Below are positions 28,452 to 58,013 of a stretch of 64,000 nucleotides of DNA, piece after piece (the stretch's first letter is position 1; each line of letters begins with the position of its first letter). This DNA is from Planctomycetota bacterium. Lineage in GTDB: Bacteria > Planctomycetota > Phycisphaerae > UBA1845 > PWPN01. The stretch covers positions 17,938 to 81,937 of the forward strand of contig JAKLEZ010000024.1 in NCBI GenBank assembly GCA_022711465.1, written 5' to 3'. Both the position numbers and the translations under genes were made by a program. Under the pieces are notes generated by a model. That model worked only from the letters and a program-made list of their open reading frames with translations, ran no database searches and had not been told where the DNA came from.

Positions 28452-28455
28452 GGGT

Positions 28456-31079: not shown

Positions 31080-31961
31080 TCACGGGGTGAGTCGTCTGAC
31101 CTTGATGGTCAGGGGCACGCCGGATGTGGAGGAGCTTCCGCCGATCCGCAGGGCGGAGCTGCTCCAGTGGACGCCGAGCACCCATTCCCCGGTGCCGCCC
31201 CGTTGGGTGTTCTTGATCCAGTTGGTGTGCCCATCGAGGTAGCCCATGTTCACCCCGGTGCAGGCGGCCTGGGAGGCCGAGGTGTAGTAGTTGGTGTAGG
31301 CGGGGATATCCGCGTTGTTGGTTCGTTCCGACGACCGGCCGTGGTTGAAGACATACTTGGTGAGATTGGTCACGCCGGGTCCGCTGGCGGTGTACTCGTC
31401 CTGGACGATGGGGACCGAGGAGGGTGAGCCTCCGGCGGTCCATTCCTGTTTCGGAGCCCACGGTCTGTCGAGCGAGGTGCCCTGGAACACGCAGGTCGAG
31501 TTATAGAGCATCATGACCTGGGCGCCCATGTAGCCGGCAGACAGAGCCTTTTCGATGTTGGCGGGATCGTCCAGTCGCGGGCCTCCGTTGGCGGGACAGC
31601 TGAAGATCTCCATCTGGTTTCCGATGTAGCGTTTCATGATCGCGCGGAGATCGTAGACGCCGCGACCGCTGGGATCGTAGGATGCCAGGACGGTGTCGAT
31701 CCACCAGGAAGCCCCGTTGTTGGCGTACTGGGTTGCGTTTCTCGGCAGGTGTCCCCGGTAGTCCTGGCCGTACATGATGCAGGCGTTGAGGTGCTGGTGC
31801 ATGTTGGATGCGCAGGTGACTTGTTTGGTTTGCTCGCGAGCGCGGCTCAGGGAAGGAATGAGGACGGCGATGAGTAGGGCGATGATCGCCACGACGACGA
31901 GGACCTCGATCAGCGTGAATCCTGCTATGGCCCTGGTCTTGTGCAGATGTCGCCCGCTCAT
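31080..31961 (-). CDS. Prepilin-type N-terminal cleavage/methylation protein, DUF1559 / H-X9-DG family (pseudopilin-like)
   Basis: G|FTLIEVLVVVAIIALLIAVLIPSL prepilin motif. C-terminal MGYLDGHTNW (H-X9-DG-type DGH). Confidence 0.85.
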   Translation of the reverse strand: MSGRHLHKTRAIAGFTLIEVLVVVAIIALLIAVLIPSLSRAREQTKQVTCASNMHQHLNACIMYGQDYRGHLPRNATQYANNGASWWIDTVLASYDPSGRGVYDLRAIMKRYIGNQMEIFSCPANGGPRLDDPANIEKALSAGYMGAQVMMLYNSTCVFQGTSLDRPWAPKQEWTAGGSPSSVPIVQDEYTASGPGVTNLTKYVFNHGRSSERTNNADIPAYTNYYTSASQAACTGVNMGYLDGHTNWIKNTQRGGTGEWVLGVHWSSSALRIGGSSSTSGVPLTIKVRRLTP

Positions 31962-32026
31962 GTGGCATCCTCCGCGGTGACTCTACGCCCCACGAACATC
32001 GGCTGGGATGTTATGCCGCTTATGAT

Positions 32027-32055
32027 AGAATATCGACCTATTCCGATCTTGTCAA
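32027..32055 (-). promoter_or_regulatory. Candidate sigma70-type promoter (TTGACA-N17-TATTCT) for the pseudopilin gene; overlaps a weaker divergent TTGTCA-N17-TATCCG
   Basis: Minus strand: TTGACA (32055-32050), 17-nt spacer, TATTCT (32032-32027). It lies about 65 nt upstream of start 31961, inside the most AT-rich patch of this intergenic region. Confidence 0.4.
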
Positions 32056-32297
32056 GAAGGTGAACGACCGATATCCGGTCTTTCTTTGCCACGAAATGTG
32101 GTTTTTTCTGGAGAGGCGGGGAAGAGAGGCTTGACAGCGAAGCCCTGGTCTGGTGTAATGGCGGGTAGAACAGTGAGTGGGAACGCGCCCTGGGGCGAGG
32201 CGGCCGGTCGTCAGGGAAGGGAGGCATGTGTGGCGCGGGCGAGTGGGCGGGTCTGTAGCGTGGCGGGTGGCGGTTCGGGGCAGGTGCGAGCGTTTCG

Positions 32298-33449
32298 ATG
32301 AGGCGAGAGGAAGGGTTCAATGACGTTCTGGACGTTGGCCCGGTGGCCATGCGGGTGGTTCGTCGGCTTCGCCGGCAGGTTCTGACTGGCGGTTTGAAGG
32401 CTGGCGAGGAACTGCCGTCGGTCCGTGAGCTGGCTCGGACCAGCGGGGCGGGGGTGGTGAGTGCTCACCGAGCCCTGCAGCGGATTGAAAGCGAAGGGTG
32501 GGCCAGCCGGGGCGGCGGCCGGCGGTTGCGGATCAATCACGACGCGGTTCGTCTGGCCGAGGCCCAGCTTCGCCAGGAGCCGCCGACCCGGGTTTTCTGG
32601 CTGAGTCCCTCGCGCGTGCGTCTCAGTTCGGAGATGGCGGTCAACACCATCTCGGAAGGTCTTTTTCAGGTTTTCCCGGGTTGTTCCCCTCACTACTTGT
32701 ATGTTGATCTGTCTGCGGGTTTTGGTCCGGTGGAGCAGCTGATCCGCCAGAACGCGGAGTTGCCGTGCGAGGTAGGTTATGTTCTGGCGGGGATGCCCCC
32801 GGCGTTCAAGCGGCTGTTTGCCACCTACGAGTTGCCCTGTGTGGTGCCCGGCTACGTCGAGCCGGGAGTGGGTCTGCCGTGCGTTTACGAGGACATGGTG
32901 AACGTTGGCCGGATGGCCGGCGAGCTGTTGTGCCGGAGGGGGCGGGTGGTGGCCCTCTGCCATCAGGAGCTTATTGGAGCTGAGGTCTTCCTGGTCGAAG
33001 GGGTTCGGGAGGCGGCCAGGGTCATGGGAGCTCACATTCCCAGCGCCGCCGAGTTCTACTACCACCTCATGCCCGATATGGCCGACTATGCCCGGGCGAT
33101 TGACCTGTTGCTTGATCAAAGCGACGGTCCCGTGGGCATCCTGGCGGTTCAACCGGAGTTTGCGATGCTGGCCCTGCAGGCCGCCGCCCGGCGTCGCATA
33201 CCCATCCCCGAGCGAGTGCAGGTCGTCGCGTTACATCATCATCCGATGTATTCCTTCGCCTATCCGGCGATCACCTCGATCGGGCCCTATTCGCTGGTTG
33301 AACTGGGCCGCCGATGCGCGGAGATGCTGGCCGAATCGATGGGTGGGCGGTCCAAAGCTGCTCCGCGGGAGATCATCCGGTCCACGCTGGTTGAACGAGA
33401 ATCGACGCTGCCGCGGGCCACGGGTGCCCAGCGGCCGGCGGCGGGTTAG
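32298..33449 (+). CDS. GntR-type HTH regulator fused to a periplasmic-binding-protein-like (PBP1/LacI-type) sensor domain
   Basis: N-terminal winged HTH (GLKAGEELPSVRELARTSGAGVVSAHRALQRIESEGW). The remaining ~300 aa has the alternating beta-alpha pattern of a sugar-binding fold. The true start may be Met-18 (32349). Confidence 0.7.
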   Translation: MRREEGFNDVLDVGPVAMRVVRRLRRQVLTGGLKAGEELPSVRELARTSGAGVVSAHRALQRIESEGWASRGGGRRLRINHDAVRLAEAQLRQEPPTRVFWLSPSRVRLSSEMAVNTISEGLFQVFPGCSPHYLYVDLSAGFGPVEQLIRQNAELPCEVGYVLAGMPPAFKRLFATYELPCVVPGYVEPGVGLPCVYEDMVNVGRMAGELLCRRGRVVALCHQELIGAEVFLVEGVREAARVMGAHIPSAAEFYYHLMPDMADYARAIDLLLDQSDGPVGILAVQPEFAMLALQAAARRRIPIPERVQVVALHHHPMYSFAYPAITSIGPYSLVELGRRCAEMLAESMGGRSKAAPREIIRSTLVERESTLPRATGAQRPAAG

Positions 33450-33508
33450 AAGAGCACCGGGCCGTCTCGTGTGGCTTGGGGCTCTCTTGCGGTTCTGGAG
33501 GTTGGAAG

Positions 33509-36500
33509 ATGAGACGATACCTTATTTCCGCGGGGGTGGTACTGGGCGCAATCCTGTGTCTTGGGTCAGCCTCGTGGGCCACGCAGATCACGGTGAACGG
33601 GGTCACTTCCCTCTTTGACGACTATGAGGCGCCCGATGTCTTGGGCTTGCCGCCGGTGGCCAATATCGGCACGTGGACGGTCCGCGGCGGGACGGTGCAG
33701 GAAGTCACTCCTCCCGGGGCTTATCAGGGCAGTCAGTTCCTCGCGATGTTCAACGCCGACAGCCCTATCCTGCACAAGTTGAACCCCGTCGGTAGCGGGA
33801 CCGGCACGGTCATCCGCTTGGACACCATGGTTTTCCTGCCCCCGGCCGCTCAGGGTCAGGAAGCCTGGTATCAGATGGTTTGGTACGACACCTCGGGTAC
33901 AACGGTGGGAGCCGACAACTCGCCCATCCACACCGCGATCATCGGTGATCAGCTCCGTTACTGCGAGGGTGGGTCTGCCTACTCGACGAGCGGCGTCCCG
34001 GTCGCCTACGGTGTCTGGCAGCACTGGGTGATTGAATACACCGTCGGCTCGGGTCAGTTCACGGCGACCGTCGACGGCGCATCCATGACCATGGGTCTGA
34101 ACGCCCGCAGCTCCGATGTGGGCATTGGCTATGTCCAGTTCTTCGCCAACAGCGCCGCGGGAAGCAACCCGATCCTCTTCGACGCCGCCGTGAGCCAGGG
34201 CACCAATGACACCTGCACCAACGCCTTTTCGCTCGGCGACGGCCTGATCGCCGGGAGCACCGCGGGGGCGACTCCCGACGGCACCGCCTCTTGCGGCAGC
34301 TCGGACAGTGGCCCGGATGTGTGGTACGTTTACACGGCCACGTGTAACGGACAACTCACCATCGACAGTTGCGGTTCCGACTTCGATACCGTGGTCTCGG
34401 TTCACGCCGACGGTTGTCCGGGCACGGCCGCCACTCAGTTGGCCGGCGGATGCAGCGACGACTGCCCGGGCACGCCCTGCGGCGGGACGGCGTCGTGCGT
34501 GACCGTCGCGGTGACCAACGGGACGCGATACCTGGTGCGTGTGGCCGGCAAGGGCGGGGCGAGCGGGGCGTTTACCCTGAATGCGAGCGTGGTCTGCGAA
34601 TCGGAATGCCCGGGTTTTCCGCAGAATTTCGATACCAATGAGGTGGGTTCGGCGGCCTGCTGGTTTGGCGGGCAGCGGTGGTTTGACCCGACTCCGGGTG
34701 CGACGGTGGCGGTCACCGACACCGATTTCGTCTCCTTTCCGCGCAGTTTGATGGTCACCGGCAGCGGTACGAACATGATGGCCTGGCGGGCGTACGAGAC
34801 GGTGTCGTCCAACGGTACCGATCCAATCAGCGTGTCCTTCGATTTCAAGGTCAACAACTACGCTGAGAACATCGCGTTCAGTCCGTTCGCCTTCAACAAG
34901 GTGTTGTGGGGCGCGGCGGGTACGCCGCACGCTGATGCATTCGGCTGGCCGGTCAACACCAACTACGAGCCCACCGGGCTCTTCAGCTACGTTGATGCGG
35001 TCGCGGGCTCGATCACCATGTTCGCGAAGGACCGAGCCGACCTCAACGGGCAGTGGATCCGCTGGGAAGGAACGCTCTATCCCGCGACCCGCAAGGCGGA
35101 CGTGGTCGTCGAAGTCATGACTGGTCCGGCGGCTGGGACCTCCGGCGGCGTCATTGGCAAGGATTTCCAGTGGGACGTGGCCAACGACTACTATGGCCAG
35201 GCGATGGACGAGATTCGTGGCTCGGTTTTCTTCACCCCGGGCGGTTCCACCTTTGGGCCGGACGATCAGGTCCTGATCGACAACTACGATGTGCGAGTCG
35301 GGCCTCCCGCGACGCCGACCCTGCCGGTGAACGACCTGTGTGCCGACGTCCTGACGATCGGCAACGGCAAGACCTACGGGCGGACGCTGGGCGCGACGCA
35401 GGACGGCGACGCGTCCTGCGGCAACACTTCGGGCAGCCCGGACGTCTGGTACCGGTACACGGCCACCTGCACCGGTGATCTGATCATCAAAGGCTGCGGC
35501 TCCGGTTTCGACGTGGTCATTTCGGTGCATTCGGACACTTGTCCGGGGACGGCCGCCAACCAGTTGGCTTCCGGCTGTGCCCAAGGCTGTGCCACCGGTT
35601 TGTGTGACCAGTTCCAGCCGTGCTTGTCCGTGCCGGTCGTCGAGTCAACGAGCTACCTGATTCGGGTGGCAGGCGTCGATGGACAGTCCGGTTTCTTCGG
35701 GCTGGATCTGTTCTGCTTCGCTCCGATTCTGAACGACACCTGCGAGTCGGCGACGACGATCACGGAGGGCACGGTGTCGGGTACCACGATGATGGCGGCG
35801 GTCGACGGTGATGCTTCGTGCGGCAGCTCGGGCAGCAGCCCGGACGTCTTCTACGCGTTCACGCCGGCAGCCACGGGCACTTACACAATCGGCGTTTGCC
35901 CGAAGAGTGCGTTCACGCCGGTCCTCTCGATCCACTCGGGCTGCCCGGCGGCCCTCGGCAACGAGTTGGCCTGCACCAGCGGCTCAGCCGGTGCTTCGCT
36001 TGTCCTGTCGCTGACCGCTTCAACCACGTACATCATCCGGGTATCCGGAGAGAGCGGCACTTCCGGCGACTTCGATCTGAGTGTGGTCGCCGGCGGCGGG
36101 CTCGCGGCATTGCCGTTGAGCCAAGGCTTTGAGAGTGACACGGTGGGTGCGGCCGCGGGCTGGGAGACCGGCTATCCGACCATCACCTCGTCGGCTTGCG
36201 GTGGCTCGACGGTTACGGTCATCGATACCGAAGCCAGTCCGAATGACGGCGGATCGAGGAGTCTGCACTGGCTTGAGCCGGCAGGGGACGGGCGCAGCGC
36301 ACTCGTCCGGCGATGGGAGCCGCTGCCCAGTGCCGCGACGGGCAAGCTGCGTGTGGCCTATGACTTCAAGATCGTGCAGCACTCGGTGAGCGGCCTGTCG
36401 TTCATCGTCTCCGGTTGGGACCCGAATGGCGCGCTCAATCTCAACCTGTTTGCCATGCGATTCGATCCTGACTCCGGCGACGGTCTCAGCATCGGGATGA

Positions 36501-37030
36501 ACTACCTGAACAACGGGAACTGGGAGAACTTCATGCCCGTTGCCGACACGGCCGAGATCATTGGCCAGTGGTTCCACTATGAGGCGATTATCGATGTCGG
36601 CGCCAGAACGGTGGACCTGACCCTTACTCGTCTGATGACGCCGGCGCCTCTGTCGGCGCACATCGTCGGCAGTTACCAGACCGCGCCCGGCGAGAATCCG
36701 CTCGATGCCGACATCGCCAACTACCATGGCATCGACATCTTCCAGTCGAGCGGTGCCGCGGTCAGCGAGGTATTGGTCGATAACGTGACCGTGGAGGTTC
36801 TCGGCGGATGCCCGCGGCCGTTTGCCGATGCCGATGGTGACAGCGACGTGGACCAGGTGGACTTTGGCATTTTGCAGGCGTGTTTCACCGGTGCCGAGGG
36901 TGGAGTTGCTGACGCGTGCAAGTGTCTGGACTGGAACAAGGACAATGCGATTGGAGGGGTCGACCTGAACAAGTTCAGCGCGTGCTTCAGCGGTCCGGCG
37001 ATCCAGGCGGACCCGTCTTGTGCAGACTGA
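33509..37030 (+). CDS. Giant secreted multidomain protein: jelly-roll-like N-domain, 3x Cys-rich PPC-like modules, 2x unnamed ~230-aa domain, C-terminal dockerin-like module
   Basis: ATG 33509 after ggagg. Signal peptide MRRYLISAGVVLGAILCLGSASWA. Internal repeats are described in the findings. C-terminal DADGDSDVDQVDFGILQACFTG...CKCLDWNKDNAIGGVDLNKFSACFSGPAIQADPSC. Confidence 0.85.
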   Translation: MRRYLISAGVVLGAILCLGSASWATQITVNGVTSLFDDYEAPDVLGLPPVANIGTWTVRGGTVQEVTPPGAYQGSQFLAMFNADSPILHKLNPVGSGTGTVIRLDTMVFLPPAAQGQEAWYQMVWYDTSGTTVGADNSPIHTAIIGDQLRYCEGGSAYSTSGVPVAYGVWQHWVIEYTVGSGQFTATVDGASMTMGLNARSSDVGIGYVQFFANSAAGSNPILFDAAVSQGTNDTCTNAFSLGDGLIAGSTAGATPDGTASCGSSDSGPDVWYVYTATCNGQLTIDSCGSDFDTVVSVHADGCPGTAATQLAGGCSDDCPGTPCGGTASCVTVAVTNGTRYLVRVAGKGGASGAFTLNASVVCESECPGFPQNFDTNEVGSAACWFGGQRWFDPTPGATVAVTDTDFVSFPRSLMVTGSGTNMMAWRAYETVSSNGTDPISVSFDFKVNNYAENIAFSPFAFNKVLWGAAGTPHADAFGWPVNTNYEPTGLFSYVDAVAGSITMFAKDRADLNGQWIRWEGTLYPATRKADVVVEVMTGPAAGTSGGVIGKDFQWDVANDYYGQAMDEIRGSVFFTPGGSTFGPDDQVLIDNYDVRVGPPATPTLPVNDLCADVLTIGNGKTYGRTLGATQDGDASCGNTSGSPDVWYRYTATCTGDLIIKGCGSGFDVVISVHSDTCPGTAANQLASGCAQGCATGLCDQFQPCLSVPVVESTSYLIRVAGVDGQSGFFGLDLFCFAPILNDTCESATTITEGTVSGTTMMAAVDGDASCGSSGSSPDVFYAFTPAATGTYTIGVCPKSAFTPVLSIHSGCPAALGNELACTSGSAGASLVLSLTASTTYIIRVSGESGTSGDFDLSVVAGGGLAALPLSQGFESDTVGAAAGWETGYPTITSSACGGSTVTVIDTEASPNDGGSRSLHWLEPAGDGRSALVRRWEPLPSAATGKLRVAYDFKIVQHSVSGLSFIVSGWDPNGALNLNLFAMRFDPDSGDGLSIGMNYLNNGNWENFMPVADTAEIIGQWFHYEAIIDVGARTVDLTLTRLMTPAPLSAHIVGSYQTAPGENPLDADIANYHGIDIFQSSGAAVSEVLVDNVTVEVLGGCPRPFADADGDSDVDQVDFGILQACFTGAEGGVADACKCLDWNKDNAIGGVDLNKFSACFSGPAIQADPSCAD
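34204..36090 (+). repeat. Three copies of a ~125-aa Cys-rich module (PPC/pre-peptidase-C-terminal-like) at protein level
   Basis: The copies start NDTCTNAFSLGDG, NDLCADVLTIGNG, NDTCESATTITEG. They share ASCGxSxSxPDVWY.YTA.C.G.L.I..CGS.FD.V.SVH...CPGTAA.QLA.GC and YL(I/V)RVAG..G.SG.F. Approximate ranges are 34204-34600, 35329-35720 and 35731-36090. Copy 1 is separated from copy 2 by one copy of the ~230-aa domain. Confidence 0.7.
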
Positions 37031-37137
37031 TCGATGGTGCCGAGCGACACCGCTTGCCGGCGCGTGGCCGGTGGAAAGACGGCTGTCGCATGTTGAGGAG
37101 GGACCGGTCGAGCCGGTCCGGAAAGCGGGAGAGAGAC

Positions 37138-37968
37138 ATGAGAGCAAGAACAACTCTGGTGTGGGTGTGCGGCGTGATGGGTGTCCTGGCTGGCGTGGCC
37201 TTCGGGCAGACCTTCTCGCAGAGCTTCGAGAGCGACGCGGTCGGTTCGGCAGCCGGCTGGAGCGGCGGGCAGCGTTGGTTCGATCCGACGCCGGGCGCGG
37301 TCGCGGCGGTGACCAGCACGGATTCCGTATCCCCGTCGAACAGTCTCAGTGTGACGGATCCGAACGGGACCGGTTTCTTCGTCTGGCGAGACTATGGTGG
37401 GCTCTCCTCGGACGGTGTCCAGGACATCACCGTGTCGTTCGATATGAAGGTGAGCAACTACGGCGACAATATCGCCGTCAGCCCGTTCGCGTACAACTCC
37501 TCGGTCTGGGGCGGTGATACGGGGGGTTCCGGCGGCTTCGGCTGGCCGGTCAACACCAACCTGACCGTCGAGAACATCTTCAGCTACTATGACGAGAACG
37601 CCGGTTCGATCACGATGCTGGACAGCACGGTCGTCGGCGACCTCCGAGGACAGTGGATTCACTGGTCCGGCACGGTGCATCCGGTCGCTCGCACGGCCGA
37701 TGTCGCCGTGACCCTGCTGACCGGTCCCTCGGCCGGTGCGACCGGCAGCGTCACGGGTGCGCAATTCCAGTACGGCGTGGCTTCCGACTATTACGGTGGA
37801 GCCATGGACGCTCTGCGCGGCCTGGTGATCTTCAACCCTGCGTCTGCTTCATTCAGCGGTGGCGAGCTCCTGATCGACAATCTGAGAGTGGTTGTGCCCG
37901 AGCCCGCTTCACTGGCTCTGCTCGGTCTGGGTGGCCTTGCTTTGATCGGCCGGCGGCGGAGCCGGTGA
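37138..37968 (+). CDS. PEP-CTERM-anchored protein consisting of a single copy of the unnamed ~230-aa domain
   Basis: ATG 37138. Signal peptide MRARTTLVWVCGVMGVLAGVAFG. The domain runs QSFESDAVGSAAGWSGGQRWFDPTPG...LLIDNLRVVV. C-terminal VPEPASLALLGLGGLALIGRRRSR is a textbook PEP-CTERM sorting signal. Confidence 0.8.
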   Translation: MRARTTLVWVCGVMGVLAGVAFGQTFSQSFESDAVGSAAGWSGGQRWFDPTPGAVAAVTSTDSVSPSNSLSVTDPNGTGFFVWRDYGGLSSDGVQDITVSFDMKVSNYGDNIAVSPFAYNSSVWGGDTGGSGGFGWPVNTNLTVENIFSYYDENAGSITMLDSTVVGDLRGQWIHWSGTVHPVARTADVAVTLLTGPSAGATGSVTGAQFQYGVASDYYGGAMDALRGLVIFNPASASFSGGELLIDNLRVVVPEPASLALLGLGGLALIGRRRSR

Positions 37969-37995
37969 GGACTCTCGGTTTTCTCTTGCAGGGGG

Positions 37996-41100: not shown

Positions 41101-41113
41101 GGTGATTCAAGGG

Positions 41114-47401: not shown

Positions 47402-47490
47402 CGCAGTACTCGCCAAGACTGGAGAGCGGGCACGTCCCGCCTCCAAGGATGTACGCGCATACAGAGACTTCGGGTGGCCGGCATCCCGGC

Positions 47491-50247: not shown

Positions 50248-50381
50248 GATTGAATTCCTTTCATATGGGCAGTTCCTCATACTTCCTCGTGGCCATGCCT
50301 GGTGTTCTCCGGAACCGGCGTTCAAGGCAGGTTCCTGGTTGACGGGCCGAGGATCCGGGGGCGTGGGGTGATAAGACCGCC

Positions 50382-51725
50382 TCAGGTTCTCCCGGTCACG
50401 CAGCCCTGCTCATGAATAGCGCCTCCGCACGAGTTCCACAGGCTCAGCACCTGGTCTCTGATGAGCGATGTGGTCTGGGGACTGACCCGCCACAGGCCGA
50501 TGTAGCGGTGAGCCTCCTCCACCTCGTATCCTCCCAGCGGGAATGACTCGGGCGTGGGGACATACCCGATGTAGCCGTGGCAGTAGCCGGCCACACAGAC
50601 CGGTTCGGCCTTCAGGCAGGCAGCCAGGTCGCGGCCGGACTCGTAGAATACCTCCCCCGGCAAGGCCACGATGGCCCCGTCGCCCACCCGTAGAATCGAG
50701 ATACGAACCGGGAGAGGTGGAAGTTGCCCATTCGAGGAGAGGACCGCCTCCAGCTCGGCGAGCCATTCTCGCCAGGCCCTCCGCACCTTCTCGACGACCA
50801 CGGGGTTGTCCCGCTCGCTGTCCCGGACTGTCTTGTCAGCGCGACCGAGCTCGGCCTTGATCTGCTGAATGGGTGGCATCCTGTCGTAATGCAAGCTGAA
50901 CCGGTGCGACTGCACCGCCAGCGTGTCGCGGTGGGATTGTCGGGAAGCTCGAAGGCCCCGGAGGACGGCCTCGGCGAGCAGCTGCCCGGTTGCACGCGCG
51001 GCCTCGGGACCCCCGAAAGCCAGTTCCGGTGAGAGATCGCCGCAGCAGCCGTTCAGGTAGATGCAGGCGTGTCCTTGGGCCGTCAGGGCCTCGGCCGCGT
51101 ACCCCCAGAAATCGGCGCTGATGAGGGTGCTGTCGCCGCCCAGGCAGTAAGGATGGCACGCATGGTGGAAGAGCAGAATGGAGCGGTTGACGCCGCGGAG
51201 GCTCAGCACGCGAACGGCGGTCTCCGTGGGTCCGGTCGGGTTCCGTCCCAGGATGACGCTGAGGCCTTCGGGGCCCAAGGTCTCCTGACGCCGGTTGTGC
51301 GCGAGCTTGACCGACGCACTGCCCCAGGATGCCTGAACAGGCTGGAGATCCGCGAGAGCTCCCTGAGCCGCAAGCATGGCTGCCCGCTCCAGTCGGGCGA
51401 GATAGGGGGCGTCCTCGTCGCCGATCCCCCGCAGCCGGGCAGTCATGGGCCCGGAATGGGTATGGGTAGAGGCAAGGACGACCTGATCAGATGGAATATC
51501 CAGAAGGCTGCCGAGCTTCGCCACCAGCCGGTCGGCAAGAGCGGGCGAGAGGGCCAGCAGATCGAAACTGACGAGGGCTGCCCGGGTCGGCTCGTCATCG
51601 AGGACCAGGGCTCGGGCGCTCAGTGGAGTGTCGATACCCGTGCTCGCGGAGGTGCGAGCGATGAAGCCGTTGAGAACCGCGCCTGCGGGGGGCGTGATAT
51701 CGATCGAGGCAAACCCGGCGAGCAT
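50382..51725 (-). CDS. Neutral/alkaline ceramidase-like hydrolase family protein (no signal peptide seen)
   Basis: 447 aa. N-terminal GFASIDITPPAGAVLNGF...GIDTPLSARALVLDD...VSFDLL...VVLASTHTHSGP matches the ceramidase_alk N-terminal signature. Confidence 0.55.
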   Translation of the reverse strand: MLAGFASIDITPPAGAVLNGFIARTSASTGIDTPLSARALVLDDEPTRAALVSFDLLALSPALADRLVAKLGSLLDIPSDQVVLASTHTHSGPMTARLRGIGDEDAPYLARLERAAMLAAQGALADLQPVQASWGSASVKLAHNRRQETLGPEGLSVILGRNPTGPTETAVRVLSLRGVNRSILLFHHACHPYCLGGDSTLISADFWGYAAEALTAQGHACIYLNGCCGDLSPELAFGGPEAARATGQLLAEAVLRGLRASRQSHRDTLAVQSHRFSLHYDRMPPIQQIKAELGRADKTVRDSERDNPVVVEKVRRAWREWLAELEAVLSSNGQLPPLPVRISILRVGDGAIVALPGEVFYESGRDLAACLKAEPVCVAGYCHGYIGYVPTPESFPLGGYEVEEAHRYIGLWRVSPQTTSLIRDQVLSLWNSCGGAIHEQGCVTGRT

Positions 51726-51802
51726 ACACCGTTCTCCCCATTGACGCTTCGATGCGTCGCGCGGCTGTGGCTACAGATCGCCGCGGATCTGCGTGTGGTT
51801 GG

Positions 51803-52900
51803 TCAGATCTTCCCCTTGTCTTTTCGCGTCTGGTTGATCTGGGCCCGGCTGCGGTGCCGGTAGTCGCGCAAGATCTCGATCTCGTATTGCCGGCACAGGT
51901 CCCTGACTCGCACACCCGGCTTGACGGACCAGAGCATATACCAACCTTCCAGCTCACAATCCTTCATCTCGACTTCGCCCTTGTGTTCTCTCAGTAGCTG
52001 GGCCACCTTCGTGCCGGTGAAGTTCTTGTGCACGATGGTGCGGTCCAGGTCGAGGGTGGCCACGAATTGGCCGGGGCATGGCTGCTCCACGGCTTCAATG
52101 GTCCGGCCGGTGGCATCGATGATATTGCCGCGGCCGACCGGGACGATGCAGTAGTTGTGGCACATGGCATAGCCATTCAGTGGCATGCCGCCGCCGTAGG
52201 CGCTGGGCCAGAACACGATCTCGGCTCCGCGCTGATCGGCGTCCTGCCACAGCTCGGCGAAGTTGGCGTCGAAGCAGGTGAGGATGCTGATTCGCCCGAA
52301 GTCCGTGTCGAAGACCTTGACACCCTCCTCGCTGAGGTTGAGACCCTCGCCCCAGAACACGAAGACCTTGCGGTAGTAGCCTGCCACCCTGCCCTGGCGG
52401 TCGATGAGCACGGCGGTGTTGTACTGCCTGCCCTGCTCTGCTTGCTCGCGAATGGGGCAGATCACGTACATATGGTGTTTGCGGGCCAATTCCGCGACTG
52501 TGAGGGTCGTTGGCCCGGAGACTGGCTCGGCCTGACTGCCCGCGAATTCCTCAGGGAGGCAGGCGATGTCCACCCCGAGACTACCCGCGGTCTGCAGATG
52601 CTCAAGGGCCAGCTTCAGTTTTTGGTCGTGCTCGCCACCGGTGCCGATGGCGATAGCGGACACCTTGACTTGGCGGCCGGGCAGGTTTTTCGCGCCTCTC
52701 GGGTAGGTCTTGCCCCGATCGGGGGATCCCCGAAGTTGGCCGGGCGATTCCTCTGGACGCGAGGAGGTCTGTCCGATGGCCACCCCCGAGGCATCGGTCG
52801 CGGAAGGGAACACCTGATCTGCGACGGCCGGCCGGGGGAGGCCGGCGACGATCGACACCGCGGCCACAGCCGTAATGGTACTCCAGTTCGACGCGATCAT
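51803..52900 (-). CDS. Secreted carbon-nitrogen hydrolase (nitrilase superfamily amidase)
   Basis: Signal peptide MIASNWSTITAVAAVSIVAGLPRPAVA. Glu block (IACLPEEF), Lys block (YYRKVFVF), Cys block (ISILTCFDANFAELW), followed by IVFWPSAYGGG. Confidence 0.8.
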   Translation of the reverse strand: MIASNWSTITAVAAVSIVAGLPRPAVADQVFPSATDASGVAIGQTSSRPEESPGQLRGSPDRGKTYPRGAKNLPGRQVKVSAIAIGTGGEHDQKLKLALEHLQTAGSLGVDIACLPEEFAGSQAEPVSGPTTLTVAELARKHHMYVICPIREQAEQGRQYNTAVLIDRQGRVAGYYRKVFVFWGEGLNLSEEGVKVFDTDFGRISILTCFDANFAELWQDADQRGAEIVFWPSAYGGGMPLNGYAMCHNYCIVPVGRGNIIDATGRTIEAVEQPCPGQFVATLDLDRTIVHKNFTGTKVAQLLREHKGEVEMKDCELEGWYMLWSVKPGVRVRDLCRQYEIEILRDYRHRSRAQINQTRKDKGKI

Positions 52901-52934
52901 GTCGAGTCTCGTCCCCTTGTGGTCGACGCAGCGA

Positions 52935-53651
52935 TCACCATCCGACGGGGTACGGTGAATGCCAGCGGACCTTGACCTTGGAGTGTGTTCGGACCTCGGC
53001 GTGGCCGTCGCCGCACGAAACGTTAGACCAGCCCTTCTTGTCGTCCAGCGGATGGCGGAACAGCCACCCCTCGCGCGGGCCTTGGGGGATGATCCGGCAG
53101 GTCATGACCACCACCTGCTCCGCGTTCTTCTCGTCGATCTTGCAGATATACTCGTCCCGGTTCTTCCCGTTGCGGTTGACATCCAGCCACATGACGTCAG
53201 CCGAGGGCGACGCATCCGACGGATTGGCGGGGTTCCGCCACGTCGGGTTGCCCAGATAGTAGTAACCGATGCGGTATACCGTCGTGCCATACACGTGGCC
53301 GGGCGGCCAAGGGGGTCGCTTCTCGACTTCCGGGTCGCGCATGATGTCGTCGTTGGGGCAGAACAGGACTTTGTGGTAGTTGTTCCTGCCCAGTTCCTTC
53401 TCGAACGCGAGTCGCGTAGGGTCCGGCACCCACTCGATAAGGTCGGTATTCTGGGGAGGCAGATAGCCTCGGTTGCGGTTCGCATACATGGTCAGGGCAA
53501 CGCCGATCTGGTGGTGGCTGCTCAGGCAGGTGGCCGAGATCGACTGCTGCCGGACACGGCTGAGGGACGGCATCAGGATGGCCAGCAGGAGGGCGATGAT
53601 GGCCACCACGACCAGTACTTCGATCAGCGTGAACGCTCTTGAGCGATTCAT
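52935..53651 (-). CDS. Prepilin-type N-terminal cleavage/methylation protein, DUF1559 / H-X9-DG family (second copy)
   Basis: SRAFTLIEVLVVVAIIALLLAILMPSL. C-terminal NVSCGDGHAEV. Confidence 0.85.
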   Translation of the reverse strand: MNRSRAFTLIEVLVVVAIIALLLAILMPSLSRVRQQSISATCLSSHHQIGVALTMYANRNRGYLPPQNTDLIEWVPDPTRLAFEKELGRNNYHKVLFCPNDDIMRDPEVEKRPPWPPGHVYGTTVYRIGYYYLGNPTWRNPANPSDASPSADVMWLDVNRNGKNRDEYICKIDEKNAEQVVVMTCRIIPQGPREGWLFRHPLDDKKGWSNVSCGDGHAEVRTHSKVKVRWHSPYPVGW

Positions 53652-53822
53652 GGCCGCATCTCCTTGTCATCTTTCCCTTTCCGTCGAGGCAGGCTTGGAG
53701 ACCTGCTCCATCCGGCTACCATCCGCTCCACGCTGGCACATCGGCCCCGTGTCGGGGCCCGCCGGGACAGAGGCGACGCCCGCTTGCGGCCCGCGGCCGG
53801 CGGGTGATTCAACCGGACCGGC

Positions 53823-54137
53823 CTACTTGGGCGACGTCCAATCCCGGAGCATGCCGCCTGCGAAAACCATCTTGCCGCTTCCGGCTCCTTCTCCATATGT
53901 CCATCGCGTGAACGCCAGGTCACTGGCGCTGGCGGTCGGTTCACCGAGAATGTCACGCACCTGCTGCTGGGTCATGCCCGGCCTGATCCGCCGCCAGTTC
54001 TCCCTCTGTTCCCACTTGGCCGCGGGAGACGAGGACCCGAAATCGCTCCGACTGCAGGTCGCGTAGAAGCCCGCCACGGCAGCGGCGATGATGACTCCCC
54101 CCACGATGGCATACCTGGGCAGATTGCGCGCCGTCAT
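53823..54137 (-). CDS. Small membrane-anchored SmpA/OmlA (BamE-like) domain protein
   Basis: 104 aa. TM anchor YAIVGGVIIAAAVAGFYATC, then WRRIRPGMTQQQVRDILGEP...WTYG...VFAGGMLRDW (BamE-like fold signature). Confidence 0.5.
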   Translation of the reverse strand: MTARNLPRYAIVGGVIIAAAVAGFYATCSRSDFGSSSPAAKWEQRENWRRIRPGMTQQQVRDILGEPTASASDLAFTRWTYGEGAGSGKMVFAGGMLRDWTSPK

Positions 54138-54210
54138 GGGTGTATACTCCGGCCGCGCCGGCGGGGAGAATCGAAGGTGGCCCGCCGGCGCGGCTCTCGG
54201 TCCGTGGTGT

Positions 54211-56790
54211 CTACTCCTCGCACTCCGCGCTGGCCGGGACCATCGGCCCGCTGAAGCAGTTCACGAATGCGAGCAGGTCGGAGCCGTCGACATCGCCGTC
54301 ACCCTGGTCGCCGTAGTCGCGGTCGAAGCAGAGACAGCTGTCGACGGCCGCGGTGCCGTTGCCGCTGAAGCAGAGCTGCCACGCACCGAAGTCAGCCTGG
54401 TCCACGTCGCCGTCTCCGTCCGCGTCGGCGAACGGCTTATGACATGGCCGGAACGTGTACAGGAACGTCTTGTCGGCGTTAGCCTCTTCCGGATAGTAGT
54501 CGCCGGAGTTCTCACCGACGTAGATGACCCGGAACCGGGTTGGGTTACCCAGCTCGGACAGCGGGATCGACGACTCGATCGAGGTCTGAATGGGGCCTGT
54601 GGCTGCTGCCGGCAGGGGCAGACCACCGGCGACCAATCCGCCACCGGCATCGGCAGCCCAGAGGTTGTGGCCCTGGGTCCCGTTGGTGTTAATCTCGGCA
54701 CCGATGACGGCCGGCGCCCATGCGCCCTTCTGCCCGGTCGCAGGATCGAAGTCCGTGTCGATCACGGTCCAGTAGCCAAGTGCCGTAAAGGGGAGACTGC
54801 CCGGCGCCCGCTTTACCAGGAAGTAGAAGTTGGCGCTGTCATGAGCGACCCATACCTGCACCCAGTCCTCGCTGGCCGCGGGGGCATCGCCGATCGGGTC
54901 TGCGGTGTAGGGCGTGGCGTTCGTCCAGTCGGCCAGCTGGCCGTCCACGCGCATGGTCCCGTCGGCCACCGGGTTGGACCTCGACTCGGCGATATTGCCC
55001 GGCAGCGGGTCCGGCAGGGCCCCCGTGTAGTAGTGCAGCACCTTCCCCTCCGTGCCGGCGCTGTCCGGGTAGTAGTCGTGGGAGGTTTCGCCCTCGAAGA
55101 TAAAGGTGAAGTTGTCCGGGTTGATGAATGTCGAGCGCGGAAAGGAGAATTCCTCATAGTCTTGCGGCGGCATCGCCATAGGCACGTTGTGATCGTAGCA
55201 GCCATTGCTGCTCCAGGCATTGGACGCAAGTCCGCCCCAGTTGTATTCGCCGCCGATTGAGAAGCTCCGCGCACCGAAGCCGGTGAAGCCGGTCGCCTTG
55301 TCACGGTCGGTGTCCAGGATGATCCAGTAGCCCTGCCCCAGACCTCCCTGGAACTCCGTGCTCTCCGGGGTCCTCTCAACCATGAGATAGAGGTTGTTAT
55401 CGTCGTGGGCGATGGAGGCCCGCAGCCAGTCCTGGGCCAGGCCGCCGTCGCCAGCCGTGTCGTCCGGGAAGAAGGTGAGGCTGGACCAGTCGGAGAAATC
55501 GCCGTCGATGCTGATCGCCCCGTTGGACACCTTGTTGCTCAGCGTGTAAACCTCCACCGGGTCGCCGCCGGTCGGACTTGGGGGATGCACGGTGTAGCGG
55601 AAATAGTCCGCATTGAAAGCTCCGTCGGGGTAGAAGTCCGGGCCGTTCTCGCCCACGAATACCAGATTCATCGCGGCGGGATCTCCCATGTCGGATCGCA
55701 GGACCGCTCCCTCGACGGCGAGGGGACTTGGGGGGAAGGCGACTTGATCCCAGGAGGTGCCCCAGCTGCCGATCAACGGGCCCTGGAAGATGTAGTCCGT
55801 GCTGTTCGTGGAATTCCAGCCCGTCCACTGGGCAACGGCCGGATTCGTGTCAATCATGATCCAGAACCAGCCGGTCCCGTCATCAAGTCCGTTGGGGCTG
55901 TCCGCCGCTGCCTCCAGGCTGAAGTAGTAGTAAGTATCGTCGTGGGCGATGGCAATCTGCTTGAAATCGCGACCGCCGTCACCCGTCGGATCGTCCGGGT
56001 AGGGTGCGACGCTCGCCCATTCCGACAAATCGCCGTCAATGGTGATGGCCCCGGAGGCCACCGGGTTGGAAAACGACTCGACCATCCCGGTCGGCCGGCT
56101 GTCCGGCGGTATCGCCCCGGTGGTGGAGTAGTGGAAGTAGTCCGTACCGCCCGCGTAGCCTCCGTCGGGGTAAACGTCCGTGAATAGGTCGCCCGTATAG
56201 CCGTAGCACACGAAGCGAAACTCGGTCGCAGGCGGTGCGGCGGCGTTGGTGTAGTCGGTGGTCAGCGCGGAGCGCAGAACGCGGGCCTCGAAGACCGACG
56301 GCGACTGCACTGAGGTGGCGACGAACGTGAAACCACCCAGGCCGGAGGTGCAGGTGGATGCCCCCGGCGGCCACCGATTGACGCTCAAGGCGCTGTTTGA
56401 AGTGAACTCGCCGCCGACCGAGAGATTCAGGCTCCCGAGCAGGTTCCTGCCGGTGGCGATGTCCTCGTCGGTGTCCAGGACGACGCGATAGCCGGCATCA
56501 GTCAATGGTAGGCTGCCCGCCGCCCGCTCGAACCGGAAGAAGAGGTGGGTGTCGTCGTGGGCCATCCAGGCCTGGACCCAGTCGTTGGAGCCGGCGACGG
56601 CGTCGCCCGCCGGATCGGGAGAAAACGGCACGACCTCCGCCCAGTCGGTAAACGCTCCGTCAATGACGATCGAACCATTGGGAACCGGGTTCGACCGCTG
56701 TTCGAGTTCCCCGGCGTACGACCGCAGCGCCGGGCAGGCCGTGGCCAGTGTGACGACAGCCAGAGCCACCCAAAAGTTCTTTCCAGACAT
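54211..56790 (-). CDS. Secreted protein made of 4x ~190-aa repeat + C-terminal dockerin-like module
   Basis: ATG 56790 after gaggagga (the ORF track starts at TTG 56796). Signal peptide MSGKNFWVALAVVTLATACPALRSYAG. Each of the four repeats opens SNPV..G.I.IDG...DW..V.P...DP.GD...DW.....AHD...(L/Y)(F/Y). C-terminal FADADGDGDVDQADFGAWQLCFSG...CLCFDRDYGDQGDGDVDGSDLLAFVNCFSGPMVPASAEC. Confidence 0.8.
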   Translation of the reverse strand: MSGKNFWVALAVVTLATACPALRSYAGELEQRSNPVPNGSIVIDGAFTDWAEVVPFSPDPAGDAVAGSNDWVQAWMAHDDTHLFFRFERAAGSLPLTDAGYRVVLDTDEDIATGRNLLGSLNLSVGGEFTSNSALSVNRWPPGASTCTSGLGGFTFVATSVQSPSVFEARVLRSALTTDYTNAAAPPATEFRFVCYGYTGDLFTDVYPDGGYAGGTDYFHYSTTGAIPPDSRPTGMVESFSNPVASGAITIDGDLSEWASVAPYPDDPTGDGGRDFKQIAIAHDDTYYYFSLEAAADSPNGLDDGTGWFWIMIDTNPAVAQWTGWNSTNSTDYIFQGPLIGSWGTSWDQVAFPPSPLAVEGAVLRSDMGDPAAMNLVFVGENGPDFYPDGAFNADYFRYTVHPPSPTGGDPVEVYTLSNKVSNGAISIDGDFSDWSSLTFFPDDTAGDGGLAQDWLRASIAHDDNNLYLMVERTPESTEFQGGLGQGYWIILDTDRDKATGFTGFGARSFSIGGEYNWGGLASNAWSSNGCYDHNVPMAMPPQDYEEFSFPRSTFINPDNFTFIFEGETSHDYYPDSAGTEGKVLHYYTGALPDPLPGNIAESRSNPVADGTMRVDGQLADWTNATPYTADPIGDAPAASEDWVQVWVAHDSANFYFLVKRAPGSLPFTALGYWTVIDTDFDPATGQKGAWAPAVIGAEINTNGTQGHNLWAADAGGGLVAGGLPLPAAATGPIQTSIESSIPLSELGNPTRFRVIYVGENSGDYYPEEANADKTFLYTFRPCHKPFADADGDGDVDQADFGAWQLCFSGNGTAAVDSCLCFDRDYGDQGDGDVDGSDLLAFVNCFSGPMVPASAECEE

Positions 56791-56841
56791 GTGCAATCCT
56801 CCTCAATGGCCAATTGTGACGGACAGACGCTATCCGATACG

Positions 56842-57924
56842 CTAACTCGAAGCCCGAACCACCAGCTGGGGCGGGATCACGACCGCCCGGCGATCCGCGG
56901 GCACCGTACCTTCATCCAGCAGTTCAAACAGCAGTGAGGTCATCGCTCGAGCCAGTTCCTCCACGCGAAGGTCAATCGTCGTCAGGGGCGGATCGACCAG
57001 CGTGCTGATGTCCAGATTGTCACAGCCCACGACGGCGACGTCCTCGGGCACGCGTCGGCCGCGATGGCGGAGGGCGGCCATGATTCGGGCAGCGTAGGCG
57101 TCGTTGACGGCCACAATTCCGTCGACTTTCTGGTCGAGCACGAGGTGGTCCACGGCTGCCTGGGCCAAGTCGGGGGTGAACGCATCCATCCACCCGGCAG
57201 CGGTTCGCTCGCCGAGCACCCACACCAGCCGCTCATCGTAGTCGAGTCCTGCCGCGGCCAGCGACTCCCGGTAGGATTCGTGTCGCTGGACGGCGTAGGG
57301 AAACACCAGGTTGCTCATGACCAGGCCGATCCGCCGGCGGCCCCTTTCAAGCAGGTGCCTGACGCCCACTCGACCCACTTCTCGGAAATCCGCCTCCACA
57401 TAACAGGCCCGTTCCGCCTGGGTCCGTCTGAGCACCCCGGGTTTCTCGTAGTACACGACGTTCCCGAACCGGGCCAGCGCGGGCTGGACGAATGCGGCGT
57501 AGTCCGGGTGGTTGTGGAAAACGCTGATCACGCCGTCCACGCCGCGGGCCCGAAAATCGTCAAGGTAGTCGCGAACGCGCTCGCGCGATCCGATGGCGTG
57601 ACCGACAATGAAACGGATTCCGCGGTCGGCCGCCCGTCGTTCCATCCACTGAATGATGCGAACGTCAACCACCGCCTCGGTATTGATGAGCACACCCACG
57701 GCGTTGCTTCGCTTGCCGGCGAGTTGCCGGGCGATCGGGTTTGGGCGGTAGTTCATCCTGCGGGCGGTCGCCAGCACGCGTCGCGCGGTTCGGTCCGAAA
57801 TGCGATGAGCCTGCCCCCGGCCGTTGAGCACCAGTGAAACGGTGGTCGGGGAGAGCTTCAGCTTGCTGGCAATCTGCTCAGAAGTGACAGACTTGGAATC
57901 AGGTTTCCGCACGCCAGGACTCAC
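56842..57924 (-). CDS. LacI-family transcriptional regulator
   Basis: GTG 57924. HTH VTSEQIASKLKLSPTTVSLVLNGRG...RVLATARRMNYRPN, then a PBP1 sugar-binding fold (VGVLIN..., GVDGVI, DGIVAVNDAYA, VGCDN). Confidence 0.9.
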   Translation of the reverse strand: MSPGVRKPDSKSVTSEQIASKLKLSPTTVSLVLNGRGQAHRISDRTARRVLATARRMNYRPNPIARQLAGKRSNAVGVLINTEAVVDVRIIQWMERRAADRGIRFIVGHAIGSRERVRDYLDDFRARGVDGVISVFHNHPDYAAFVQPALARFGNVVYYEKPGVLRRTQAERACYVEADFREVGRVGVRHLLERGRRRIGLVMSNLVFPYAVQRHESYRESLAAAGLDYDERLVWVLGERTAAGWMDAFTPDLAQAAVDHLVLDQKVDGIVAVNDAYAARIMAALRHRGRRVPEDVAVVGCDNLDISTLVDPPLTTIDLRVEELARAMTSLLFELLDEGTVPADRRAVVIPPQLVVRASS

Positions 57925-57984
57925 TTCCCATCATCGGTCAGCCTTGAAGATGAGCACGGCATTCTGCTAAACCGCTTTTGCATT

Positions 57985-58013
57985 AAGATATCAGGCGATT
58001 GCGAACCTGTCAA
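57985..58013 (-). promoter_or_regulatory. Candidate sigma70-type promoter (TTGACA-N17-TATCTT) for the LacI-led minus-strand gene string
   Basis: Minus strand: TTGACA (58013-58008), 17-nt spacer, TATCTT (57990-57985). It lies about 60 nt upstream of GTG 57924, in an AT-rich patch. Confidence 0.45.

Follow-up and report, generated by a model that had tools for sequence, protein, structure and literature searches.

Gene clusters built around carbohydrate-active enzymes (CAZymes), or CAZyme gene clusters (CGCs), are reported to be frequent in the Planctomycetota and functionally uncharacterised (PMC11131199). A locus of this type was analysed in a 64,000-nucleotide (nt) stretch of planctomycetal DNA (assembly GCA_022711465.1, contig JAKLEZ010000024.1, forward-strand positions 17,938 to 81,937), referred to throughout as the window, in which 14 genes between positions 31,080 and 57,924 form two convergent arms, each with its own regulator of a sugar-binding type. 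An initial annotation had interpreted these arms as a single 27-kb unit, a planctomycetal counterpart of a polysaccharide utilisation locus (PUL) directed at one glycoconjugate target. Comparison with relatives, in which the arms are found apart, instead points to two separate sugar-regulated clusters lying tail to tail, not to one island. Specifically, we consider it probable that they are two independent, sugar-responsive CGCs of an uncultured, Phycisphaerae-like planctomycete of anaerobic digesters and activated sludge.

Several features are shared between the two arms and the planctomycetal CGCs surveyed to date, including the co-localisation of CAZymes with a transcription factor on one strand, the presence of many unclassified genes, predicted secretion, and membership of the same phylum and class (PMC11131199). 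Those surveys, however, are statistical reports in which no cluster has been characterised functionally, and the present clusters differ from the surveyed ones in that a GH84 enzyme is the sole recognised CAZyme, the remaining large enzymes fall into families that lack annotation, and a pseudopilin is a conserved member. The recognised CAZyme, at least one of which a CGC must contain, is supplied by this GH84 domain (PF07555). With respect to spacing, the CGC definition (dbCAN) asks that a transcription factor, a transporter or a second CAZyme be no more than two genes away; here, the LacI regulator lies six genes from GH84, and the neighbouring six-hairpin and propeller proteins are glycoside hydrolase (GH)-like by predicted fold only. 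Similarly, the arms resemble the SusC/SusD PULs of Bacteroidota in that a single locus combines surface proteins for glycan binding, glycosidases at the surface and a sugar-sensing regulator. They depart from those PULs in that no Pfam match to TonB_dep_Rec, Plug or SusD was found in the 14 open reading frames (ORFs) or in flanking ORFs, in that regulation involves LacI- and AraR-type repressors rather than hybrid two-component or extracytoplasmic function (ECF)/anti-sigma systems, and in that anchoring would proceed via PEP-CTERM and dockerin-like ends rather than lipoprotein signals. The earlier idea of a PUL-like system without SusC/D is nonetheless a reasonable description of regulator-headed clusters of secreted or surface-associated carbohydrate-active and lectin-like proteins.

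Sugar operons controlled by LacI or AraR in Firmicutes and Proteobacteria, such as the B. subtilis AraR regulon, provide a further comparison, as both the LacI helix-turn-helix (HTH) plus periplasmic-binding-protein-like (PBP) architecture and the GntR HTH plus PBP architecture are found here, and in the minus arm the start region of the promoter is overlapped by a palindrome centred on CG. In contrast to those operons, each regulator is here the first gene of its own presumed target operon, the products are large secreted multidomain proteins, and the operon includes neither a transporter nor a cytoplasmic pathway. Duplicated calcium-binding loop modules at the ends of secreted enzymes and binding proteins recall the cellulosome and the proposed 'planctosome' (PMC6461901), whereas the modules described here score below threshold, are cysteine-rich, include one internal copy (in GH84), and have no cohesin nearby. 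Finally, the catalytic domain of GH84 resembles those of BtGH84 and CpNagJ in its Asp-Asp pair and surrounding motifs, while two repeat ('rep') units and a dockerin-like module replace the BtGH84 N-terminal domain or the NagJ tail (CBM32/FN3/cohesin).

The genes and putative control sites of the two arms are listed below by position in the window, with protein lengths in amino acids (aa) and supporting matches in brackets.

31080..31961, minus strand: pilA1, pseudopilin-like protein, 293 aa, divergent from the plus-arm regulator (N_methyl, 26.1 bits)
32027..32055, minus strand: sigma70-like putative pilA1 promoter, TTGACA-17-TATTCT, 66 nt upstream of pilA1
32131..32159, plus strand: sigma70-like putative plus-arm promoter, TTGACA-17-TGTAAT, then GTAGAAC (read from the sequence)
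32298..33449, plus strand: AraR-type regulator, 383 aa (Pfam GntR, 40.4 bits; Peripla_BP_3, 62.6 bits)
33509..37030, plus strand: big1, secreted lectin-like protein, 1173 aa (Pfam, BLAST, signal peptide from the sequence)
37138..37968, plus strand: PEP-CTERM protein, 276 aa, with signal peptide, one modX domain and PEP-CTERM sorting signal
37996..41100, plus strand: big2, 1034 aa, with signal peptide, predicted five-bladed propeller, LamG, modX and dockerin-like C-terminus
41114..44725, plus strand: big3, 1203 aa, with propeller, LamG and a second, diverged propeller at the C-terminus
44708..47392, minus strand: GH84 beta-N-acetylglucosaminidase, 894 aa, with two rep units and an internal dockerin-like module
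47491..50247, minus strand: sixh, predicted secreted multidomain (alpha/alpha)6-barrel glycosidase-like protein, 918 aa (AlphaFold2, Foldseek)
50382..51725, minus strand: cer, neutral-ceramidase-like Zn-amidase fold, 447 aa (Ceramidase_alk, 65 bits, N-terminal domain)
51803..52900, minus strand: CN-hydrolase, nitrilase-superfamily amidase, 365 aa, with an N-terminal signal-like segment (CN_hydrolase, 81 bits)
52935..53651, minus strand: pilA2, pseudopilin-like protein, 238 aa (N_methyl, 32.9 bits)
53823..54137, minus strand: BamE/OsmE-like small lipoprotein-like protein, 104 aa (BamE, 32.6 bits)
54211..56790, minus strand: rep4, 859 aa, with signal peptide, four rep units of ~180 aa and dockerin-like C-terminus
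56842..57912, minus strand: LacI-family regulator, 356 aa, first gene of the minus arm (LacI, Peripla_BP_1/3/4)
57982..57965, minus strand: LacI-type imperfect palindrome of 18 bp, half-sites TGCAAAAGC and GGTTTAGCA, central CG, directly after the lacI -10 box
58013..57985, minus strand: putative minus-arm promoter, TTGACA-17-TG-TATCTT, ~60 nt upstream of lacI

The initial annotation had made its single-unit interpretation depend upon conservation of the two-arm layout among relatives. The juxtaposition is retained only in a 92%-identical metagenome-assembled genome (MAG; L175, GCA_018003015.1), which displays the same layout, convergent overlap included, but is nearly the same organism (proteins 90-97% identical). 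At ~80% identity, in sample ERZ21831019, a complete plus arm (pilin 84%, regulator 89%, big1 80%, PEP-CTERM protein 81%, big2 83%, big3 80%) is followed by unrelated genes on a 99-kb contig (L007), while the minus arm is found on a different contig of 76 kb (L011). The latter carries genes for LacI (87-92% identity), rep4, a BamE-like protein, a pilin, an SSF symporter, cer and sixh, then a dockerin/BACON/FGE-sulfatase protein, and lacks both CN-hydrolase and GH84. A 67% relative (L008, the same as L020) possesses the plus arm followed by aspartate-semialdehyde dehydrogenase and sulfatase genes, with no minus arm; similarly, a more distant MAG (L034; regulator 42%, big2 48%) presents a rearranged plus-arm set, in the order big3-like double propeller, pilin, regulator, big1-like, second pilin, big2-like, with no minus-arm genes. 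Conversely, neither GH84 nor the plus arm lies near a 76% sixh homolog (L176). Because the arms occur apart in these relatives, their juxtaposition is best explained as a recent, lineage-specific adjacency. As a side observation, the lacI, rep4 and pilin orthologs of L011 are each split into two ORFs (1562-2633, 2682-5242 and 5803-7024), which may be sequencing frameshifts rather than pseudogenes, the style of the contig name suggesting a long-read assembly.

In addition to being separable, each arm possesses its own conserved promoter. A sigma70 consensus scan returned exactly one site in each half (those ahead of pilA1 and lacI), a count not above chance, and both sites are well placed. The plus-arm promoter and the GTAGAAC that follows it are conserved in L007 and L008 amid otherwise diverged spacers. 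In the minus arm, the -35 box and a 29-nt block containing the palindrome are unchanged in L011, against strong divergence in the rest of the spacer. With up to 3 mismatches allowed, the palindrome has no second match in the window. On the pilA1 transcript, the promoter is closely followed by a 20-nt block (32009-32028) that is identical in L007 and may represent a candidate operator. Searches of the window for further copies of the LacI operator or of the pilA1 block returned the originals only. No terminator-like site was detected in any intergenic gap of either arm, which is compatible with, but no proof of, one transcript per arm.

Transcription data offer a view of the same question. Three activated-sludge metatranscriptomes contain short contigs 99-100% identical to lacI, rep4, pilA2 and CN-hydrolase, with one on GH84; these cover mainly the half of the minus arm next to its regulator and show that this arm is transcribed in situ. 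On the plus arm, RNA contigs were confined to pilA1, the regulator gene and the 3' end of big3, which hints only faintly at separate expression of the two arms. The co-regulation proposed earlier is thus not borne out: each arm has its own conserved promoter, and the sparse RNA contigs, themselves weak evidence, do not suggest co-expression. Two further observations concern these RNA assemblies. An RNA contig of ~170 nt (54208-54380) covers the last ~160 nt of rep4, which encode its dockerin-like end, at depths of 21 and 51 in two of the three metatranscriptomes, as compared with 2-5 for other pieces, and could be a stable 3' fragment, a small RNA, or a cross-assembly from a highly expressed near-identical sequence. 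A 416-nt RNA contig (run X6) matches 44547-44567 and 31880-31897 by 18-21 nt and is otherwise unlike the window, almost certainly owing to chance or chimerism.

While the unity of the two arms was not sustained, the gene map of the initial annotation, comprising 14 genes with their sizes and gaps, was reproduced from the ORF list and translations and is almost entirely correct. The plus-arm gaps of 59, 107, 27 and 13 nt were recovered with starts at 33509 for big1 and 41114 for big3, the minus-arm gaps range from 34 to 171 nt, and the convergent 3' overlap at 44.7 kb amounts to 18 nt, big3 ending at 44725 and GH84 at 44708. Independent gene calls on metagenome contig Ga0116241_10000447, which the window DNA matches, agree with this map. 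Pfam and NCBIfam likewise uphold the labels GntR plus PBP, LacI, PEP-CTERM, GH84, ceramidase-like, CN-hydrolase and BamE-like, although 'giant' is a generous term for proteins the largest of which run from 860 to 1200 aa. The same DNA is present in anaerobic-digester and activated-sludge assemblies, the closest named relatives of the window's proteins belong to 'Phycisphaerae bacterium' MAGs, and G+C content is 63-66% throughout the window. Signal peptides, called by eye from the sequence with no predictor, appear to be present on big1, the PEP-CTERM protein, big2, big3, rep4, sixh, CN-hydrolase and GH84 (short).

The minus-arm regulator is a LacI/GalR protein with matches to PF00356, PF00532, PF13377 and PF13407. 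Among the proteins encoded behind it, GH84 matches PF07555 NAGidase at 167.3 bits (cut-off 25) over residues 528-807, with the catalytic Asp-Asp pair and flanking motifs intact ('SLDDIGG' aligned to the 'FFDDISG' of BtGH84, E 6e-31). The cer protein retains the HTHSGP metal-site motif when aligned to 4wgk and has neither a signal peptide nor the ceramidase C-terminal domain; as it reaches only 30.7 bits against the 1200 bits of NF041649, and 447 aa against the ~650-690 aa of full neutral/alkaline ceramidases, it is a distant, single-domain and apparently cytoplasmic relative of these enzymes. The sixh protein matches nothing in Pfam or NCBIfam, and all 75 members of its family recovered in an indexed search are annotated as 'hypothetical'. 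An AlphaFold2 (AF2) model built on the family alignment (pLDDT 93, pTM 0.88) predicts, from N- to C-terminus, a beta-sandwich, another beta domain, an (alpha/alpha)6 barrel (~431-808) and a further beta-sandwich. Foldseek comparison of this model with the PDB returned only six-hairpin hydrolases and phosphorylases (GH15-, GH94-, GH78-, GH95-, GH65-, GH63- and GH121-type), at ~10% identity and TM-scores of at most 0.45, with no close structure; predicted barrel and fold class therefore agree with the earlier 'six-hairpin GH-like' label. Sequence searches of the PDB returned no meaningful match for big1, big3, sixh or rep4.

Homologs of sixh, GH84 and cer form a core that recurs as far afield as the Kiritimatiellae, usually accompanied by an SSF transporter gene. 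In a MAG of that class (L014), a divergent AraC gene is accompanied by sixh, SSF, a GATase1-like gene, GH84 (catalytic domain 52% identical) and cer. Flanks of at least 6 kb surround a sixh homolog at 44 metagenome loci; at eight of these (six of them distinct) GH84 lies within 10 kb, with cer also present in four of the 44, and a Pfam check identified a recurrent order of sixh, SSF symporter, GH84, DegT-type aminotransferase and cer, which looks like an undescribed amino-sugar glycan pathway. Such loci, which lie on unrelated metagenome contigs and have the aminotransferase assigned to DegT/DnrJ/EryC1, occupy L138 7591-16092, L170 1728-10562 and L110 3413-11273, together with L014 10001-18615, where the GATase1-like gene replaces DegT; pseudopilin genes and a SASA-type acetylesterase are sometimes found nearby. 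Outside this cross-phylum core are CN-hydrolase, rep4 and the BamE-like gene; the first is present in L175 and absent from L011 and L014, and so is not a conserved cluster member, and the BamE-like gene is kept in L011 and L175. GH84 genes are uncommon in bacterial genomes, so that their linkage to sixh is well above chance and constitutes the best support for a substrate containing GlcNAc. The GlcNAc-type target proposed for the whole region is accordingly reasonable for the minus arm, in view of the intact GH84 Asp-Asp pair and the repeated linkage, and a glycan that contains GlcNAc is the most likely substrate of this arm. An N-acylated glycoconjugate, suggested earlier from the amidase and ceramidase-like genes, is conjectural.

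The plus arm, consisting of a pseudopilin, an AraR-type regulator, lectin-like and PEP-CTERM proteins and propeller-LamG enzymes, is a conserved cassette in its own right, found with its pseudopilin in four lineages. Its regulator is of the AraR subfamily (PF00392 at residues 19-77, PF13377 at 240-370), and orthologs head the same cassette in L007 (89%), L008 (77%) and L034 (42%). The big1 protein comprises a jelly-roll-like N-terminal region, three galactose-binding-like domains (three stretches matching GBD_T9SS_assoc in Pfam), two modX domains and a dockerin-like C-terminus. By BLAST, the PEP-CTERM protein is 53% identical to big1 residues 381-613; its C-terminal sequence, 'VPEPASLALLGLGGLALIGRRRSR', combines the PEP motif, transmembrane helix and basic tail, consistent with matches to PF07589 (27 bits, cut-off 20.7) and TIGR02595 (25.3, cut-off 16). 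No exosortase (EpsH) was found among the window ORFs scanned.

Big2 and big3 are 56% identical over 680 aa (BLAST) and both contain Laminin_G_3 (Pfam). The AF2 model of big2 (pLDDT 83) predicts an N-terminal five-bladed beta-propeller, for which the best Foldseek match is the GH130 structure 9gph (TMt 0.72, 17% identity), from a family of beta-mannoside phosphorylases and hydrolases, followed by GH137, a GalNAc deacetylase and GH43/GH32 enzymes. While this predicted structure lends support to the earlier label of 'GH-like paralogs', big2 is not itself placed in GH130, as it has no Pfam, NCBIfam or PDB sequence match to that family and its propeller domain spans ~460 aa as opposed to ~300-350 aa. 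The predicted pairing of propeller and lectin domain recalls that of trans-sialidases. In big3, propeller copies occupy residues ~26-490 and ~738-1205, the latter aligning to big2 26-487 at 25% identity. Orthologs of big3 range from 59 to 80% identity, the double-propeller form is kept down to the lowest of these, and L034 carries a separate double-propeller protein. The wider propeller-LamG family yielded 379 matches in an indexed search, with ~720-aa members ~50% identical between phyla (Planctomycetota, Verrucomicrobiota, Acidobacteriota, Bacteroidota and Hydrogenedentota), and accounts for 301 loci in species-representative genomes, where the sole annotation is 'LamG domain'. Propellers of ~460 aa (57-65% identity, big3 homologs) are fused elsewhere to esterase/peptidase_S9, BNR_2 sialidase-like, GHL10 (PF02638) or GFO_IDH_MocA domains, and such fusions suggest a catalytic or substrate-specific role for the propeller, combined with other carbohydrate chemistry. 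A mannose-type substrate was considered for the plus arm on the basis of the GH130-like fold, a GH5-mannosidase-like neighbour and a GH38 gene near a sixh homolog, and was set aside as too thin to claim. The neighbour in question (59760-61001, plus strand, 407 aa) is listed under PF26410 (GH5_mannosidase) in precomputed annotation and has no match in a local Pfam search even at E <= 10; together with the GH38 alpha-mannosidase gene that adjoins the sixh homolog in L012, this annotation gives a faint hint of mannose-containing glycans.

All-against-all BLAST of the proteins and a tblastn search of the window identified four kinds of module, shuffled among the proteins encoded here and absent from the window outside 31-58 kb. 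One is the ~460-aa domain plus LamG common to big2 and big3, described above. The dockerin-like module is present in four cysteine-rich copies with paired calcium-binding loops, located at the C-terminus of big1, big2 and rep4 and internally in GH84 (residues 413-487). Its designation as a dockerin was not confirmed at family level: paired DxDxDG loops are seen in the sequence, but PF00404 is matched at only 17.4 and 20.3 bits against a cut-off of 22.9, the Dockerin_1 and EF-hand matches being sub-threshold. Within the 64-kb window, no cohesin was found by Pfam in any ORF scanned. In relatives, the module also occurs on unrelated proteins, namely the FGE-sulfatase/BACON protein of L011 and a NAGPA-family protein of L012. 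A second module, modX (~235 aa), forms the body of the PEP-CTERM protein and is found twice in big1 and once in big2. The third, the ~180-aa rep unit with signature SNPV..IDG.F.DW...DP.GD...AHDD...DTD...DYYPD, has four copies in rep4 and two at the N-terminal end of GH84, as BLAST confirmed. A word-indexed search with the rep-unit profile gave just 3 proteins, whereas an exhaustive one identified 1600 representative clusters at E <= 1e-3, or 374 with the threshold tightened to 1e-10. The unit is often C-terminal on unrelated enzymes, such as a GH42-like protein, Kelch propellers and a copper amine oxidase, and this wide distribution suggests that its role is more likely in binding or anchoring than in catalysis. 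Profile searches of the PDB with the rep unit and modX returned no match.

Both clusters also contain a pseudopilin gene. Each product carries the N-terminal prepilin cleavage/methylation motif and the hydrophobic helix behind it, with PF07963 (cut-off 21.2) and TIGR02532 matched above their cut-offs, while the DUF1559 assignment given to both in the initial annotation was not confirmed: PF07596 scores 14.5 bits against 23.3 on pilA1, over residues 40-88 only, and has no match in pilA2 even at E <= 10, nor does TIGR04294 (H-X9-DG) match either protein in NCBIfam. Orthologs of pilA1 occupy the same divergent position in L007 (84%), L008 (64%) and L034 (51-54%, two copies), and pilA2 has a 61% ortholog in L011. 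A pseudopilin lies near propeller-LamG genes at three of 80 genome loci, all three being plus-arm-type cassettes, indicating that the link belongs to the cassette and not to the enzyme family. Pseudopilin genes are very numerous in genomes of the Planctomycetes-Verrucomicrobia-Chlamydiae (PVC) group, and their presence near three of the six distinct GH84-linked sixh loci is therefore not clearly above chance. The DUF1559 literature yielded no functional lead. Polysaccharide uptake by planctomycetes via crateriform structures and fibres (PMC5394234, cited in PMC11131199) is a possible context for the pseudopilins. An unlikely, more far-reaching proposal is that these proteins are working parts of both cassettes, forming a type II secretion system- or type IV pilus-like fibre that would secrete, display or retract dockerin-tagged lectins and enzymes in place of SusC/D in PVC bacteria, and that the propeller-LamG and sixh proteins are new GH families with GH84, SSF, DegT and a ceramidase-like amidase as partners.

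Under the interpretation of two independent clusters, each repressor would silence its own operon, itself included, when substrate is absent. In the plus arm, the AraR-type repressor would be transcribed first from its sigma70-like promoter, followed by the secreted multi-lectin protein, the PEP-CTERM-anchored lectin-like protein and two secreted propeller-LamG enzymes, with the pseudopilin divergent. In the minus arm, LacI would come first, under a promoter whose start region contains the palindromic operator, followed by the four-repeat binding-type surface protein, the BamE-like lipoprotein, the pseudopilin and the secreted amidase, and distally by the cytoplasmic ceramidase-like amidase, the secreted six-hairpin glycosidase-like enzyme and the secreted GH84. 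A sugar freed from the target glycan would lift repression; dockerin-like and PEP-CTERM ends would tether the enzymes and binding proteins to the cell surface, where they would bind and cut the glycan; and the products would be imported by a transporter encoded elsewhere in the genome (in relatives, the SSF symporter inside the cluster) and finished in the cytoplasm.

Several observations weigh against this account. Neither arm of the window contains a transporter gene, the SSF symporter at 19841-21817 lying inside an unrelated-looking catabolic cluster. Four of the five large secreted proteins, all except GH84, have no sequence match to a characterised enzyme, so that their catalytic activity is predicted from fold only. 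For the AraR-type regulator no operator could be defined, an inverted-repeat scan of four intergenic regions (seed 6) returning nothing, and with a single LacI operator copy, control of the distal cer, sixh and GH84 genes would depend upon an unproven 13-kb transcript. RNA contigs are absent from sixh and cer and almost absent from GH84, although, as assembler contigs at depths of 2-5, their absence means little. Finally, the dockerin-like modules common to both arms can be read as a functional tie, yet they also occur on unrelated proteins elsewhere. It is this tie, along with a pseudopilin in each arm, the abutting of the arms with an 18-nt overlap, a juxtaposition retained in L175, and the restriction of shared modules to 31-58 kb, that would fit one integrated, co-regulated 27-kb polysaccharide-utilisation island with a single N-acylated or GlcNAc-containing glycoconjugate target. 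Such an island seems to us improbable, since synteny at 92% identity carries little weight, the arms occupy separate 99- and 76-kb contigs at ~80% identity, and the plus arm stands without the minus arm at 67% and ~45%; moreover, the regulators belong to different families with separate promoters, the LacI operator is absent from the plus arm, and the module is shared with unrelated proteins in L011 and L012.

The absence of a transporter from both arms would also fit the proposition that the clusters are not catabolic and serve to build or remodel the bacterium's own surface or the matrix of the floc; the adhesins or matrix proteins would then be those with PEP-CTERM or dockerin-like ends, and the enzymes would trim the organism's own exopolysaccharide in sludge flocs. 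PEP-CTERM/exosortase systems are associated with exopolysaccharide and floc formation, and a PEP-CTERM sorting signal is present here, the habitat is activated sludge and digesters, and many unrelated secreted proteins carry the rep unit as a generic accessory module. Against such a role, for which the chances appear slim, both regulators carry sugar-binding domains typical of catabolic operons, the minus-arm core of relatives sits with an SSF symporter and cytoplasmic sugar-modifying enzymes that point to uptake and catabolism, and no glycosyltransferase, exosortase or polysaccharide-export gene is found among the 14 ORFs. A cellulosome-like 'planctosome', in which the dockerin-like ends of big1, big2, rep4 and GH84 would dock on a cohesin scaffold encoded elsewhere and so unite both arms, is very improbable: cohesin/dockerin systems have been proposed for freshwater Phycisphaerae (PMC6461901) and the four modules display paired DxDxDG-type loops with sub-threshold Dockerin_1/EF-hand matches, but all fall below the Pfam dockerin threshold, no cohesin is encoded by the ORFs scanned in the window, and their unusual cysteine content may indicate a different calcium-binding anchoring domain. 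Taken together, these considerations leave two independent, sugar-responsive clusters as the interpretation that we favour.

Upstream of the plus arm, the window contains a separate, catabolic-looking cluster (13643-30922), apart from the genes at 31-58 kb. It encodes a BNR_2 sialidase-like protein, a URO-D-like protein, an MttB-family methyltransferase, an amidohydrolase/aminotransferase fusion, an SSF symporter and an amidohydrolase, as well as an SDR protein, a BhcC-like aldolase, an aldehyde dehydrogenase, an MFS transporter and a 696-aa GDSL/S9 esterase. The initial annotation had called the sialidase-like and esterase genes neighbours of the two arms; the GDSL esterase (28832-30922) is indeed adjacent, while the BNR_2 gene (13643-14767) is 17 kb away.

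With respect to significance, the type of system is ordinary for the phylum, and the clusters alone reveal no new kind of system; what is novel is that the enzyme and module families are uncharacterised and that a pseudopilin is a conserved member. The locus nevertheless presents two compact, regulator-headed clusters with testable parts, including a putative LacI operator and a GH84 of known chemistry with which to anchor searches for the substrate, two accessory modules (the rep unit and modX) with neither structures nor Pfam entries, and two widespread, highly conserved and unannotated enzyme-like families, one combining a five-bladed propeller with LamG and the other a six-hairpin multidomain protein. 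Finding what these families cut would add to the known enzyme families and would help to account for the way in which PVC bacteria of sludge and sediments live on complex glycans without SusC/D.

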